In this document: one piece after another, positions 10,788 through 59,038 of the stretch | Numbering within the stretch: position 1 is the first letter of the stretch | Layout of the letters: each line of letters begins with the position of its first letter | Assembly (NCBI GenBank): GCA_963842155.1 | Contig: CAWJFP010000028.1 | Span: 48,899 to 112,898 of the forward strand | DNA: 64,000 nucleotides | Origin: an uncultured Pseudomonadota bacterium | GTDB taxonomy: Bacteria; Pseudomonadota; Alphaproteobacteria; JACZXZ01 | Reading direction: 5' to 3' | Translations under genes and position numbers: made by a program | The notes under the pieces: generated by a model | Seen by the model: only the letters and a program-made list of their open reading frames with translations | Told to the model about the DNA's origin: nothing | Database searches by the model: none

Positions 10788-10862
10788 TGGTGCCGCGAGC
10801 CGGACTTGAACCGGCAGTCACGGATTACAAATCCGTTGGTTTACCAATTAACCGATCGCGGC
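10788..10862 (-). tRNA. tRNA-Thr(TGT), atypical D arm
   Basis: Cloverleaf: acceptor GCCGCGA/TCGCGGC + A-CCA, D stem GGTT/AACC, anticodon arm ACGGA-TTTGTAA-TCCGT, T arm GCCGG-TTCAAGT-CCGGC. Confidence 0.85.
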
Positions 10863-10972
10863 ATCGCAAGTTCCGGGCGGCGGCTCTCCGGACGAAGATA
10901 AGCCCTGAGGAAGGGCCGCGCCAGCGCGCCCGGTGCCTAACGGTCGCGGCGGCGGGAGCGCAGATGCCGGCC

Positions 10973-11902
10973 TTACGCGCCCCGACCTCGCGCATATTCG
11001 TAAAGCGCGATCGCGGCGGCGGCGGCGACGTTCAAGCCGGCGGCGCCCTCCGGCGCCATCGGTATCCGCAGCAAGATGTCGCAGGTCTCGCGCGTCAGGC
11101 GGCGCAGCCCTTCTCCTTCCGCGCCCAGCACGAGCGCGGTGCGGCCCGCGAGCTTGGCCTCGGCGAGGCTTTGCGGCGCATCGGCATCGAGGCCGGCGCA
11201 CCAGAAGTCGGCTCCCTTGAGGTCCTCCATGGCGCGGACGAGATTGGTCACACGGACGAGCGGCACCTTTTCGAGCGCGCCCGAGGCGGCCTTGGCGAGC
11301 GAGGCGGTCGCGGCGGGGGCATGGCGCTCGGTCACGATCACCGCCAGCGCGCCGAATCCGGCGGCGGCGCGCAGCACGGCGCCGACATTCTGCGGATCCG
11401 TCACCTGATCGAGCAGCAGCAGCAGCGCGCGCTCTTGGCCCGCCACGCCGCGGCAGATCTCGTCGAGCTCGACATCCGGCAGGGGCCCGGCCTCGAGCGC
11501 GATCCCTTGATGCACGGTCGCGGGCGGCAAAAGCCGGTCGATGTCGCCGCGCGCAACGATCTCGCGCGCCATCTGCGCCCGATTGCCGGCGACAAGCGCC
11601 GCGCCGAGACGGTGGCCCAACGCGCGCGCCACCTCCTCCGTCAGCAGGAGGCGCCGACAGGGCCGCGTGGGATTGGCGAGCGCCGCCAGGACGGGATGGA
11701 CGCCGAAAAGCCAGATGACGTCCGGATGACGCTCACGCGCGGGTTTGCGTCGGCGCGGACGCCGCGCGGGCCGCGGATTTTCAGGCCCGGGATATGCTGG
11801 ACCAGGCGGCGCCGCGCCGGAGGGGGGCGGGAGCGGGTTACTGCGGTTTTGCCTGCGCGGAGCGTAGCTGCCGCCGATGCGGCCGGGCTTGCGTTTTGCC
11901 AT
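10973..11902 (-). CDS. rlmB: 23S rRNA Gm2251 methyltransferase (TrmH/SpoU family)
   Basis: HQGIAL, LDQVTDPQNVGAVLR, KAASGALE, GAEGEGLRRL, LNVA. Confidence 0.9.
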   Translation of the reverse strand: MAKRKPGRIGGSYAPRRQNRSNPLPPPSGAAPPGPAYPGPENPRPARRPRRRKPARERHPDVIWLFGVHPVLAALANPTRPCRRLLLTEEVARALGHRLGAALVAGNRAQMAREIVARGDIDRLLPPATVHQGIALEAGPLPDVELDEICRGVAGQERALLLLLDQVTDPQNVGAVLRAAAGFGALAVIVTERHAPAATASLAKAASGALEKVPLVRVTNLVRAMEDLKGADFWCAGLDADAPQSLAEAKLAGRTALVLGAEGEGLRRLTRETCDILLRIPMAPEGAAGLNVAAAAAIALYEYARGRGA

Positions 11903-12069
11903 GACCCTGTCCTATTATTCGCCTCAGACACGGTTCGCAACGACCCTCCTGCCGCGGTGCTTATCCGGGAGCAAGCGGTGGGGCGGGTGTTTTGTCGTGT
12001 TTGGACATTGACTTTCGAGGATGAATCCACTTACTTGCGTCTTCCGTCGCGGGCCCCTCGGGAGCCCGA

Positions 12070-12155
12070 GGAGGGGTGCCCGAGTGGCTAAAGGGGACGG
12101 GCTGTAAACCCGTTGGCGTACGCCTACGTAGGTTCGAATCCTACCCCCTCCACCA
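12070..12155 (+). tRNA. tRNA-Tyr(GTA)
   Basis: GGAGGGG...CTGTAAA loop, long variable arm, GTTCGAATC, CCA end. Confidence 0.96.
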
Positions 12156-12191
12156 GCCCCTTCGGGAGCGGCGCGCGGAGGCCCAATCGCT

Positions 12192-12265
<74 letters not shown>

Positions 12266-12284
12266 TGGTCGGAGCCGGCCGCAT

Positions 12285-12361
12285 AGGAGTGTAGCTCAAT
12301 TGGCTAGAGCACCGGTCTCCAAAACCGGGGGTTGGGGGTTCGAGTCCCTCCACTCCTGCCA
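12285..12361 (+). tRNA. tRNA-Trp(CCA)
   Basis: AGGAGTGTAGCTCAATTGG...CTCCAAA...CACTCCTGCCA; immediately upstream of secE. Confidence 0.96.
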
Positions 12362-55812: not shown

Positions 55813-57203
55813 GCAAGGAGGTCGCGCTGTTGTCGGCCGTCGAGCTGGCGGCGCTTTATCGCCGCAAGAAGCTGTCGCCCGTCGAGGCAACCAAGGCCGC
55901 GCTCGCGCGCCTGGACGCGCTCAACGGCCGGCTCAACGCCTTCCGCCTGGTGGATGCCAAGGCCGCTCTCGCCGCCGCGCGGCGCTCGGAGCGGCGCTGG
56001 CATAAAGGCGAGGCGCTCGGCCCCGTCGACGGCGTGCCGGTCTCGGTCAAGGATCTGCTCCTCACCAAGGGCTGGTCCACCTTGCGCGGCTCCGAGACGA
56101 TCGATCCCGACCAGCCTTGGCTCGAGGACGCGCCCTCGGTCGCGCGGCTCAGGGAAGACGGCGCGGTCCTCCTCGGCAAGACCACGACGCCCGAGTTCGG
56201 CTGGAAGGGCGTCACCGACAGTCCGCTTACCGGCATCTCGCGCAACCCCTGGAACCAAGCGAAGACGCCGGGCGGTTCGAGCGGGGGAGCGGCCATCGCG
56301 GCGGCGACCGGCATGGGGGCGCTCCATCTCGGCACCGACGGCGGCGGCTCGATCCGCATTCCCTCGGGCTTTTGCGGCATTTTCGGCTTCAAGCCGAGCT
56401 ACGGGCTGGTACCCGCCTATCCGGCGAGTCCCTTTGCCGCGGTCGCCCATGTCGGGCCCATGACGCGCACGGTCGAGGACGCGGCGCTCATGCTGAATGT
56501 GATCGCCCGGCCCGACGCCCGCGACTTCTACGCCGCACCCTATCGCGGCATCGACTATCGCAAAACTCTCAATGCGGGCATCAAGGGCTTGCGGGTCGGC
56601 TATGCGCCGACGCTCTCGGGCAACCCCGTCGATCCCGAGGTGGCGGCGATCGTGGAGCGCGCCGCGCGTGGCTTCAAGGCGCTCGGCGCCACAATCGAGG
56701 AGACGGCGCCCGAGCTCGGCCTCTACGGCCCCGTCTTCGCCACCCATTGGTACGCCTCCGCGGCGAGCCTTCTCTCGGGCTTCACGCCCGAGCAGCGTCT
56801 GCTGATCGATCCCGGGCTCATCGAGATTGCCGCGCAAGGCGCGCGGATCCCGCTGCTCGACTATTTTGCCGCCATCAAGGCGCGCGAGGCCATGGGCGCG
56901 GTCATGCGCGTCTTCCACGAGCGCTACGACCTCCTGCTGCTGCCGACCCTTCCGATCGCCGCCTTCGAGGCCGGCCGCAATACGCCGCGTACGGGCAGCG
57001 GCAACGAATGGGTGGACTGGACGCCCTTCACCTATCCCTTCAATCTGACGAAGCAGCCGGCGGCCACCGTGCCTTGCGGCCTTACCGAGGCAGGGCTGCC
57101 GGTCGGACTGCAGATCGTAGGACCCCTTTACCAGGATTTGCGGGTCCTCCAGGCGGCCCGTGCCTTCGAGCGGGCGCATCCCTTCGCCATGCCCGATATC
57201 TGA
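55809..57203 (+). CDS. Amidase signature family protein
   Basis: GVPVSVKD, GKTTTPEFG, TPGGSSGG, GTDGGGSIRIP. Confidence 0.93.
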   Translation: MSKEVALLSAVELAALYRRKKLSPVEATKAALARLDALNGRLNAFRLVDAKAALAAARRSERRWHKGEALGPVDGVPVSVKDLLLTKGWSTLRGSETIDPDQPWLEDAPSVARLREDGAVLLGKTTTPEFGWKGVTDSPLTGISRNPWNQAKTPGGSSGGAAIAAATGMGALHLGTDGGGSIRIPSGFCGIFGFKPSYGLVPAYPASPFAAVAHVGPMTRTVEDAALMLNVIARPDARDFYAAPYRGIDYRKTLNAGIKGLRVGYAPTLSGNPVDPEVAAIVERAARGFKALGATIEETAPELGLYGPVFATHWYASAASLLSGFTPEQRLLIDPGLIEIAAQGARIPLLDYFAAIKAREAMGAVMRVFHERYDLLLLPTLPIAAFEAGRNTPRTGSGNEWVDWTPFTYPFNLTKQPAATVPCGLTEAGLPVGLQIVGPLYQDLRVLQAARAFERAHPFAMPDI

Positions 57204-57233: not shown

Positions 57234-57249
57234 TTAACGATTGCTTTAC
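57234..57249 (+). promoter_or_regulatory. CtrA-box-like site
   Basis: TTAA-CGATTGC-TTTAC, one mismatch to TTAA-N7-TTAAC, just upstream of the putative sRNA. Confidence 0.4.
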
Positions 57250-57261
57250 TTATGCCGGATA

Positions 57262-57362
57262 GGCTCGGGGTCGGTTGGAGCTCTCGGACCTCCCCGGTTC
57301 GATCCAACCTTCGTTGACGCCTCCCTGTTCAACTTGAGCCGCGCTTGCGCGGCTCTTTTTTT
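57262..57362 (+). ncRNA. Putative trans-acting sRNA with two CCUCCC anti-SD loops (suhB/alpha-r8- or AbcR-like architecture)
   Basis: Hairpin GGTTGGA/TCCAACC enclosing CCTCCCC, hairpin GTTGA-CGCCTCCCTGT-TCAAC, then a terminator; 5' end approximate. Confidence 0.65.
57336..57362 (+). terminator. Rho-independent terminator
   Basis: GAGCCGCGC-TT-GCGCGGCTC-TTTTTTT. Confidence 0.9.
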
Positions 57363-57495
57363 CGCCCGCGCGGCGCATCCCACCCAGGTCTCGAAAAGAT
57401 GGGCTTTTGCCCATTTTCGCGCCAGGCGATCATCCGAAAGTCGCTGAAATTGAAAGATTTAATCTGCCATTCCCGATCTGTTCACCCGATGCCGC

Positions 57496-57525
57496 TTGAC
57501 TGCGACAGATGGCCGCATCTACTCT
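57496..57525 (+). promoter_or_regulatory. Candidate sigma70 promoter for the second small RNA
   Basis: TTGACT-N18-TACTCT. Confidence 0.45.
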
Positions 57526-57527
57526 AC

Positions 57528-57631
57528 GGCGACGGTGAGTTGAATAGGGACGGGCGTCGCGAAAAAGGCAGGCTGCCGGTTCAGTGCAGCATCCAAGCTC
57601 GAGAGGGCCGCCATTGGCGGCCCTTTCTTTT
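57528..57631 (+). ncRNA. Putative second small RNA, complementary to the upstream sRNA (candidate sponge)
   Basis: GCGACG/CGTCGC hairpin exposing GAGTTGAATAGGGA, GCTGC/GCAGC hairpin, own terminator; no convincing ORF. Confidence 0.5.
57601..57631 (+). terminator. Rho-independent terminator
   Basis: AGGGCCGCCA-T-TGGCGGCCCT-TTCTTTT. Confidence 0.85.
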
Positions 57632-57741
57632 CGCGCATCCCCGGGCTTTTTGCGTATCATTCCATTGACGGACAGTCAGCAGCCTCCATCGAGCCGCTTC
57701 CGGCAGGCGAACGCGCGATTGCCGGGAGACGGGGAGCGGCC

Positions 57742-59038
57742 ATGATCGATCCCAAGCACTTCAAATTCGACACCCTCGCGCTCCATGCCGGCCAGCGACC
57801 CGATCCGGCGACGGGCGCCCGCGCCGTGCCCATCTACCAGACCACCTCCTTCGTCTTCGAGGATGTCGACCAGGCGGCCGCGCTCTTCAACCTCGAGCGC
57901 GCCGGCCATATCTACAGCCGCATCTCGAATCCGACGGTCGCCGTGCTCGAGGAGCGCATCGCGGCACTCGAAGGCGGCGTCGGCGCCGTCGCCACGGCAA
58001 GCGGCCAGGCGGCGCTCCATCTCGGCATCGCCACGCTCATGGGCCAGGGCGGGCATATCGTCTCCTCGGCCTCGCTCTATGGCGGCAGCCACAATCTCCT
58101 CCACCACACCTTGCCGCGCTTCGGCATCGTCGCGAGCTTCGTCGATCCGCGCGACCCCGCCGCCTTCAAGGCGGCGATAAGGCCCGAGACGCGCCTCCTC
58201 TACGGCGAGACGCTCGGCAATCCCGGGCTCGAGGTAATGGACATCACGGCCGTCGCCCAGGTCGCCCACGAGGCCGGCTTGCCGCTCATGATCGACAATA
58301 CCTTCGCCACGCCCTATCTCTGCCGCCCCTTCGAGCTGGGCGCCGACATCGTCACCCATTCGGTGACCAAATTCCTCGGCGGCCACGGCGTCGCCATCGG
58401 CGGCATCCTCGTCGAACTCCGGACGCTTCGACTGGGAGAAGTCGGGCAAGTTCCCCACCTTGAGCGAGCCCTACGCGGCCTATCACGGCATCGATTTCGC
58501 CGAGGAGTTCGGCCCCATGGCCTACCTCATGCGGGCGCGCTCCGAGGGCCTGCGCGATTTCGGCGCCTCGATGAGCCCGCAAAACGCCTTCTACCTCATC
58601 CAGGGGGTGGAGACCTTGCCGCTGCGGATGGCGCGTCATGTCGAGAACGCGCTTGCCGTTGCGCGCTACCTGGCGGGCGCCAGGAACGTGCTTTGGGTCA
58701 AATATCCCGGCCTCGAGAGCCATCCCGACTATGAGCGCGCGAAGAAGCTGCTGCCGCGCGGCGCGGGCGCGATTCTGAGCTTCGGCGTCAAGGGCGGCAG
58801 GGAAGGTGGCCGTTGCTTCATCGAGTCGCTGCGGCTCTTCTCCCATCTCGCCAATGTGGGCGACGCGAAATCCTTGGTGATACATCCCGCCAGCACCACG
58901 CATCAGCAGATGGATAGCGCGGCATTGGCGGCCGCCGGCATCGAGGAGGGGCTCGTCCGGCTCTCCGTCGGCCTCGAGGATCCGGCCGACCTCATCGACG
59001 ATCTCAAGCAGGCGCTGAGCGCCGTCGGCCTGGGCTGA
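57742..59038 (+). CDS. metY: O-acetylhomoserine aminocarboxypropyltransferase (apparent +1 insertion near 58415)
   Basis: AVPIYQTTSF, YSRISNPT, HSVTKFLGGHG, HLANVGDAKSLVIHPASTTH across two ORFs. Confidence 0.9.

Follow-up and report, generated by a model that had tools for sequence, protein, structure and literature searches.

A conserved, predicted alphaproteobacterial small RNA, probably often a terminated metY leader, with a predicted site for two CCUCCC-seed small RNAs

Among the closest described systems is CrfA of Caulobacter crescentus, a sponge RNA that binds four CCUCCC-type small RNAs (sRNAs) of the alphaR8 group, SisA-D, with the core UUUCCUCCCU (Vogt et al. 2025, PMC12559287). In Rhodobacter sphaeroides, the trans-acting sRNA StsR binds both the short RNA UpsM and the full dcw leader (Grutzner et al. 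2021, PMC8266604). The sRNA BjrC1505 has been validated by Northern blot only, in Methylorubrum, with a predicted target and none confirmed (bioRxiv 10.1101/2022.01.24.477521). Here we describe two adjacent RNAs, a BjrC1505-like sRNA (RNA1) and an unannotated RNA (RNA2), predicted upstream of metY in a 64,000-nt stretch of DNA (the window; assembly GCA_963842155.1, contig CAWJFP010000028.1) from an uncultured alphaproteobacterium. A first-pass annotation of the window had proposed that RNA1 and RNA2 form a genomically linked pair of sRNA and cognate sponge, and the precedent that it named, CrfA as a sponge of the Sis sRNAs, was correct.

The coordinates and sequences of the pairing segments in the first-pass annotation were exact. 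The RNA1 seed segment at 57315-57336 on the plus strand (UGACGCCUCCCUGUUCAACUUG) and the RNA2 segment at 57536-57559 (UGAGUUGAAUAGGGACGGGCGUCG) pair in antiparallel orientation as claimed there: a count by hand gave 18 Watson-Crick and 4 G-U pairs, and the 2-nt bulge consists of C57551/G57552. By RNAduplex, the two segments gave -33.5 kcal/mol, and cofolding of RNA1 with RNA2 gained -22.7 kcal/mol relative to the separate folds. The best duplex of the RNA1 seed within the 379-nt spacer between RNA1 and metY reached -33.8 kcal/mol, a value attained by none of 500 dinucleotide-preserving shuffles of the spacer (mean, -20.6; standard deviation, 2.4; best, -29.0; z, -5.4). When the RNA2 site was read from the minus strand, it paired with the sRNA at only -3.6 to -11.2 kcal/mol. 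Genome-wide (7.5 Mb, both strands, 6,932 pre-filtered windows), the RNA2 site ranked fourth for the RNA1 seed, the antisense of RNA1 itself being excluded, and the duplex energy alone is therefore not unique; what is distinctive is this energy combined with a position approximately 200 nt downstream on the same strand. The predicted RNA1-RNA2 duplex is real and non-random.

RNA2 was delineated by alignments, consensus folds and two covariance models (R1 and R2) as a predicted RNA of approximately 100 nt on the plus strand (approximately 57530-57631, the 5' end following from the promoter). The first-pass annotation had noted a candidate promoter for RNA2; it consists of CTTGAC at -35 (57495-57500) and TCTACT at -10 (57518-57523) with a 17-nt spacer and proved to be conserved: TTGAC lies 36-59 nt upstream of the core at all 29 RNA2 loci identified in this study, and the general form is CTTGAC-N17-CTAnnn. 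The alphaproteobacterial sigma-70 consensus is CTTGAC-N17-CTATAT. Folds, RNAduplex and alignments place the predicted sRNA-binding site at 57534-57559 on the plus strand, with GGUGAGUUGAAUAGGGA as helix 1 and GGCGUCG, which is specific to RNA1, as helix 2; its sub-segment GAGUUGAAUAGGGA pairs both with RNA1 and with an unlinked SorX-like sRNA (designated P, see below), to which GGUGAG is the best fit. The site is followed by an A-rich linker (57560-57566), a middle hairpin (approximately 57567-57594) and an intrinsic terminator (57601-57631) with arms at 57601-57613 and 57615-57627 and a UUUU tail. This terminator was missed by a simple terminator scan and was detected as an inverted repeat and in the folds; its pair probability was 1.0 in the genome of the window and 0.49-1.0 over the 24 RNA2 sequences folded, in all of which a terminator was predicted. 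Both promoter and terminator are kept at 29/29 loci. The G-U pairs of the RNA2 hairpin and terminator, as well as the U tail, exist on the plus strand only, in line with the proposed plus-strand origin of RNA2. Two separate plus-strand transcription units, as proposed, are predicted.

An Rfam search of RNA2 returned no family at the gathering threshold, nor any at E-values up to 10 beyond chance-level matches of its terminator to DUF3800-VI (21.8 bits) and ctRNA_p42d (19.6 bits). The absence of a start codon after the AGGGA motif of RNA2, also noted at first pass, holds for the window, where ACG stands at this place, but not for relatives, in which an AUG overlaps AGGGA (by eye). This AUG, inside GGGAUGGGC, opens 5-12 codons in relatives; with ACG in the window and 5 codons in the related genome G003, the open reading frame is not conserved, and we rejected a small-protein reading of RNA2. 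Among the 24 folds, the flanks of the sRNA-binding site often pair and leave the site within a large loop, and the seed pairs with the terminator arms in none; three non-zero seed-terminator values were due to overlap with the A-tract by which the terminator helix is extended. With no pairing between site and terminator, simple sRNA-controlled antitermination is therefore unsupported.

RNA1 (57268-57362, plus strand; 5' end approximate) was recognized as a divergent BjrC1505-family sRNA by its Rfam score, conservation and consensus fold. Its 5' stem-loop exposes CCUCCCC (57289-57295) and is followed by a seed that is single-stranded (57313-57337) and by an intrinsic terminator (57336-57362, plus strand) with an 8-bp GC-rich stem, a 4-nt loop and U7. 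This terminator was found by terminator scan (57336-57355 plus T7). The segment 57315-57336 had been labelled a second anti-Shine-Dalgarno (anti-SD) hairpin; the folds and the consensus fold show instead a single-stranded linker between the 5' stem-loop and the terminator. Against Rfam, RNA1 scored 36 bits for BjrC1505 over the full model (cut-off, 50), 30.8 for SorX, 30.7 for SorY and 26.1 for MmgR, and the likeness to all four lies in its CCUCCCUGUU region. The equivalent adjacent sRNAs reached the BjrC1505 cut-off in five of 15 other loci scanned (50.5-67.8 bits), and RNA1 is therefore a divergent relative and no certified member of this family. The single-stranded UUGACGCCUCCCUGUU followed by the GAGCCGC...GCGGCUC terminator recurs as an identical motif at named Bradyrhizobium, Mesorhizobium and other loci.

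The usual context of BjrC1505, between DUF1192 and DUF1465 genes, is not found for RNA1, whose neighbours in the window, together with RNA2, are genes for an amidase and metY (Pfam). In Bradyrhizobium and relatives (L059, L041, L071 and others), a DUF1465 gene (Pfam, 1.7e-59) comes shortly after the canonical BjrC1505 sRNA. A recurring GUGAGGCGUUAACC at 100-200 nt downstream of these canonical sRNAs was considered as an RNA2 and rejected, as it belongs to the DUF1465 ribosome-binding region. This region is complementary to GUUUGACGCCUC of the sRNA, and the DUF1465 gene may be an sRNA target. Upstream of RNA1, the plus-strand sequence TTAACGATTGCTTTAC (57234-57249) is a degenerate TTAA-N7-TTAAC-like motif that may be a CtrA-type box belonging to the RNA1 promoter region. 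Better TTAA-N7-TTAA(C/G) copies were observed at the equivalent place upstream of BjrC1505-type sRNAs (L013, L024, L071, L072 and L079). This pattern matches the CtrA-box consensus and suggests cell-cycle control of the BjrC1505-type sRNA family.

The co-variation of RNA2 with the adjacent sRNA was analysed over 11 lineages using fixed windows of 27 nt for the RNA1-type sRNA and 32 nt for RNA2, which replaced an earlier long-seed energy matrix that was confounded by the terminator arms and by the GC-rich site of family f1. The cognate sum was -342.1 kcal/mol, compared with a permuted mean of -290.6 (standard deviation, 12.0), and was reached by only one of 200,000 permutations; double-centred diagonal residuals were negative in 11/11 lineages. 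The complementarity claimed for the window is conserved in orthologues, compensatory changes maintaining the pairing across the 11 lineages: GUUCAAC/GUUGAA of the window's family corresponds to GUUGAAC/GUUCA in G011, CUGUCUAACUUG goes with CAAGUUAGACAG in G046, and AAUGCCUC with GAGGCAUC (GAGGCAU) in G109. Every lineage carries 1-3 extra RNA2 bases between the two helices, opposite CCUCCC. A natural loss was found in G004 (100% complete), which is devoid of RNA1, the DUF1192 gene being followed directly by RNA2 and metY; its RNA2 helix-2 segment is GGGCACAA instead of GGGCGUCG, and the RNA1-specific GGCGUCG is lost.

The second partner, P, is a SorX-like CCUCCC sRNA located outside the window, on the minus strand of contig C34 of the same genome (approximately 92189-92330; L157/L158). 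It reads ...ACGUCUCCCAGACGUGAAGCCUCCCUGUUCAACUCACC followed by a terminator; its hairpin exposes UCCCA and its seed, GAAGCCUCCCUGUUCAACUC, is invariant across the window's family. P scored 31.6 bits for SorX (RF02784), below the cut-off of 46.6, and its counterparts in two other lineages scored 44.1 and 30.0 bits. A LysR-type gene precedes P by approximately 230 nt, and a similar LysR context was found in G061. This architecture and the adjoining LysR gene resemble AbcR (alpha-r15) loci. An identification of P as AbcR was rejected, since the anti-SD motifs of S. meliloti AbcR, CUCCUCCC and UUCCCCUC (PMC8844928), differ from those of P, and Rfam gave SorX only.

The predicted binding of RNA2 was stronger for P than for RNA1 (-47.5 versus -41.2 kcal/mol; in fixed windows, -44.4 versus -37.2). 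Within the site, GGUGAG matches CUCACC of P while GGCGUCG matches GACGCC of RNA1, and a single RNA2 site fits both sRNAs, as a chimera or by wobble pairs, in G156, G094, G052 and G046. In G122, G140, G137 and G066, the RNA2 of each genome (GGCAAGUUGAACAGGG and variants) is matched by a complementary, unlinked P-type sRNA (...CUGUUCAACUUGCC or ...CUCGCC); of 10 further genomes searched, 8 had P-type sRNAs. Over 14 lineages, the cognate sum for P and RNA2 was -507.8, compared with -461.8 (standard deviation, 9.4) for permuted pairs; it was reached by 0 of 200,000 permutations, and the residuals were negative in all 14. In the hold-out genome G061, the partner predicted from RNA2 alone was CAAGUCUUACAGGG, and another contig proved to carry a terminated P-type sRNA reading ...CCUCCCUGUAAGACUUGCC; CCTCCCTGTNNNACT has one exact match in this genome, which reads CCTCCCTGTAAGACT and stands beside the LysR-type gene. 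Taken together, the computational support for an interaction of RNA2 with these sRNAs, as predicted from sequence, is strong.

Both RNA1 and RNA2 were kept in 9 of 10 same-family genomes, on one contig in identical order and strand in eight and on two contigs in the ninth. The window's taxonomic order consists of one family with 11 genomes, and all 11 match model R2. A similar short RNA follows the local sRNA in the distant genomes G011 and G053, and a scan of a sequence collection with the sRNA motif detected further loci of the order sRNA-RNA2 in Algihabitans (L066), in Sneathiella chinensis LMG23452 (L077), where metY is present too, and in L091 and L103, both from metagenome-assembled genomes. 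These distant RNA2s have in common the promoter type, the 5' site complementary to the local sRNA, the A-rich linker and the terminator. Based on a sample of 151 alphaproteobacterial genomes, one per family, model R1 (built from six sequences) detected six more pairs and two false matches. Model R2 (16 sequences) matched 31 genomes at E-values up to 0.01, of which 17 genomes from 16 families were accepted after inspection; twelve further R2 loci (L192 and L197-L209 without L203) were rejected, the core, promoter or partner being missing. The spacers between sRNA and RNA2 in relatives differ in length (140-330 nt) and sequence. An RNA1-type sRNA adjoins RNA2 in 10 of the 16 families, and no CCUCCC sRNA was present within 600 nt upstream of RNA2 in the other six (G122, G066, G073, G137, G140 and G061) or in G004.

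The gene downstream of RNA2 in the window is metY (57742-58999, plus strand), which belongs to the O-acetylhomoserine sulfhydrylase family (Pfam Cys_Met_Meta_PP, 1.7e-78) and starts 110 nt past the RNA2 terminator. In this assembly it is frameshifted between 58377 and 58421: by tblastn, the MetY of a relative matches frame 1 over 57742-58377 and frame 2 over 58421-58999, and the Pfam match in the first open reading frame covers profile positions 1-213 of 381. The frameshift could be an assembly error or mark a pseudogene. At 8 of the 29 RNA2 loci there is no metY within approximately 1.5 kb downstream, and the site, promoter and terminator are nevertheless kept; a convergent Hsp20 gene follows RNA2 in G046 (Pfam), and G061 and G138 look similar to G046 by eye. 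On account of these loci, some with a convergent gene, RNA2 would have a role as a free RNA. A DUF1192 gene lies upstream in G004, G046 and G094, and a DUF1465 gene lies downstream only in loci without RNA2. An alpha/beta-hydrolase gene stands directly after RNA2 in G094 (L149) and G109 (L151), and after metY in G049 (L152). These arrangements suggest the ancestral order DUF1192, sRNA, RNA2, metY, hydrolase.

We tentatively favour, with a confidence a little short of evenly balanced, the reading that RNA2 acts as a decoy or sponge for two CCUCCC-seed (anti-SD) sRNAs and is often made as a terminated metY leader. According to this model, RNA2 would be a conserved small RNA produced from its own sigma-70-type promoter and ended by a strong intrinsic terminator. 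Its sole deeply conserved sequence, the 5' site of 16-24 nt, would pair in an extended duplex, interrupted by a bulge, with the single-stranded seed CCUCCCUGUU-NAACU that two sRNA families carry, represented by the adjacent BjrC1505-like RNA1 and the unlinked SorX-like P. In most lineages, transcription would start at a promoter that also feeds metY and would mostly end at the RNA2 terminator; the released RNA2 would then bind the anti-SD sRNAs more tightly than any mRNA target does, probably aided by Hfq, and this titration would set a threshold for sRNA action coupled to the activity of the metY promoter. The model builds on the duplex, its conservation, the co-variation with both partners, the plus-strand promoter and terminator, the stand-alone copies and the presence of hfq in the genome; from these we infer the transcription of RNA2, its binding in vivo, the involvement of Hfq and the direction of the effect, namely, titration and not regulation of metY.

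Several observations weigh against the sponge model. RNAduplex energies leave out intramolecular structure. The pairing segments are almost invariant within the window's family, the RNA2 site varying at 57551 only among the 10 same-family genomes, so all of the co-variation comes from comparison between families, and the lineages compared are not fully independent. In many RNA2 folds, the U tail is paired to the A-rich linker; the linker may belong to the terminator and not be an Hfq site. Among the 80 loci fetched by sRNA motif (canonical BjrC1505 of Bradyrhizobium, Mesorhizobium, Devosia, Stappia and others), model R2 found an RNA2 within 1 kb at four, and most BjrC1505 sRNAs therefore work without RNA2. 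A search of sequencing runs detected the sequence in four soil-metagenome DNA runs of one study and in no RNA run. The linkage to metY points in the same direction: metY lies downstream on the same strand at 21/29 loci (10/16 families), and the gap from the terminator to the metY start is only 33 nt in G122, approximately 35 nt in G003, 60 nt in G004 and 64 nt in G066, compared with 110 nt in the window, so RNA2 is the metY 5' leader in these four lineages, a position that fits an ordinary sRNA-target relation equally well.

The main rival, which we consider somewhat less likely than the sponge model, is that RNA2 is primarily the 5' leader of metY, that the two CCUCCC sRNAs regulate metY through its site, and that the short RNA is a by-product or secondary target; pairing at the extreme 5' end would alter the fate of the metY mRNA by way of cleavage (RNase E or RNase III), protection of its 5' end or a changed level of read-through. 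The short gaps leave no space for a separate metY promoter, and RNA2 stands upstream of metY in six families and G004 even where no sRNA is adjacent. The partner sRNA families repress mRNAs by anti-SD seeds, as in the case of potA repression by SorX (PMC9438474), and StsR on the UpsM/dcw 5' untranslated region of Rhodobacter provides a precedent (PMC8266604). Against this reading stand the eight loci without metY; the site also precedes a strong terminator and is 100-500 nt away from where ribosomes would bind for metY, with no alternative structure joining site and terminator. Furthermore, usual sRNA-mRNA seeds are much shorter than this duplex, which follows the flank of the sRNA that is specific to each lineage. 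Sponge action and leader regulation are not mutually exclusive. Of the sponge proposal in the first-pass annotation, the real and conserved complementarity stands, and titration is one of two live mechanisms, the other being metY regulation via the leader; the notion of a compact, linked two-part switch was not borne out. RNA2 is tied more consistently to metY than to an RNA1-type sRNA and has a second, unlinked predicted partner.

Two further explanations are in poor agreement with the data. That RNA2 is a ligand- or protein-controlled, riboswitch-like transcription attenuator of metY, with incidental sRNA complementarity, appears improbable. The locus does have a classical layout, in which a promoter is followed by a conserved leader, a terminator and a biosynthetic gene, and Rfam detected no known SAM riboswitch there, so that metY regulation at this locus is unexplained; however, the conserved part is no structured aptamer but a single-stranded site co-varying with trans-encoded sRNAs, nothing beyond the terminator and one variable hairpin appears in the consensus folds, which contain neither a conserved multi-helix fold nor an antiterminator, no Rfam riboswitch matched at E-values up to 10, and RNA2 also occurs without metY. 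Still less credible, to the point of being almost negligible, is that the complementarity is a relic, the RNA2 site being an inverted, decaying sRNA paralogue whose similarity is due to descent or to gene conversion. Read on the minus strand, 57536-57559 resembles a degenerate copy of the sRNA seed, and the RNA2 site resembles the antisense of the paralogue P. Local conversion, however, cannot explain why unlinked partners on other contigs co-vary with RNA2; moreover, the bulge position is kept across families, both sRNAs are accommodated by chimeric sites that allow wobble pairs, promoter and terminator occur on the plus strand only, and the arrangement is kept in 16 families across the class.

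If the sponge model is true, RNA2 represents a new conserved RNA family beyond Rfam and, BjrC1505 having no confirmed target, its first concrete interaction partner. It would also define a three-RNA alphaproteobacterial network with partners predictable from sequence alone, and a leader-derived decoy from a biosynthetic gene would be another case of competing-RNA cross-talk outside enterobacteria. The natural compensatory variants are ready test pairs for band-shift and reporter assays. A broader extension, which we consider rather unlikely, is that RNA2 is a widespread alphaproteobacterial hub RNA, a terminated metY leader whose release scales with the activity of the metY promoter and which titrates BjrC1505-like and SorX-like global sRNAs via one chimeric, wobble-tolerant site, with the BjrC1505-like sRNA possibly under cell-cycle (CtrA) control and the SorX-like sRNA possibly under stress control; sulfur and methionine biosynthesis would then be wired into two post-transcriptional regulons.

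Some other features were observed. The decamer GGCGCATCCC occurs three times, at 57173-57182, 57372-57381 and 57632-57641 (the third as CGCGCATCCC), the last two copies being just 3' of the RNA1 and RNA2 terminators, which may be due to chance. Between RNA1 and RNA2, a hairpin TGGGC-TTTT-GCCCA at 57395-57416, flanked by A and T runs and not conserved in relatives, could be a weak bidirectional terminator. Four tRNA genes lie within 10791-12358, three clustered on the plus strand (12070-12358) and one on the minus strand (10791-10862). Outside the window, contig C8 of the same genome carries an alphaR8/MmgR-like candidate sRNA at approximately 54005 on the plus strand, with the sequence ..GCGUUUCCUCCCUACACUUGGGCCGCGCC ahead of a hairpin and U tract.

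The open-access literature searched contained no description of RNA2 or its pairing, the original BjrC1505 and SorX papers being outside that scope. As in the case of CrfA, RNA2 is a predicted alphaproteobacterial small RNA with a G/A-rich site complementary to the single-stranded, CCUCCC-type core of at least two sRNAs, and both sides of each system are probably terminated, Hfq-associated transcripts. In contrast, the partners of RNA2 are BjrC1505-like and SorX-like sRNAs with GCCUCCCUGUU, while those of CrfA carry the alphaR8 core; RNA2 has a housekeeping-type promoter and is usually a metY leader, while CrfA is described as induced by carbon starvation (PMC12559287); and the RNA2 duplex is 16-24 bp long with a conserved bulge. 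No homology of RNA2 to CrfA turned up in the Rfam search, which gave no match, and no direct comparison with CrfA was made.

RNA1 has the 3' half in common with BjrC1505 (RF02356), including UUGACGCCUCCCUGUU...GAGCCGC of the terminator, and P has CCUCCCUGUU and the terminator in common with SorX (RF02784). Compared with RNA1, the canonical BjrC1505 loci have a DUF1465 gene downstream and no RNA2; compared with P, which follows a LysR-type gene, Rhodobacter SorX is described as derived from a 3' untranslated region (PMC9438474). RNA2 would resemble SroC, which acts on GcvB (PMC4474525), and 3'ETS-leuZ (PMC12559287) as a decoy from a dual-purpose transcript that links gene expression to an sRNA regulon, but these are processed fragments, whereas RNA2 would be a primary terminated 5' transcript. 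UpsM is likewise a short RNA that arises by termination in a 5' untranslated region; it precedes the dcw cluster and not metY, RNase E cleavage after a conformational change is the outcome described there, and RNA2 also stands alone, without a co-directional downstream gene. The system reported here thus differs from those of CrfA and UpsM in four ways, namely, in the RNA itself, in its BjrC1505-like and SorX-like partners, in its metY context and in its dual site.

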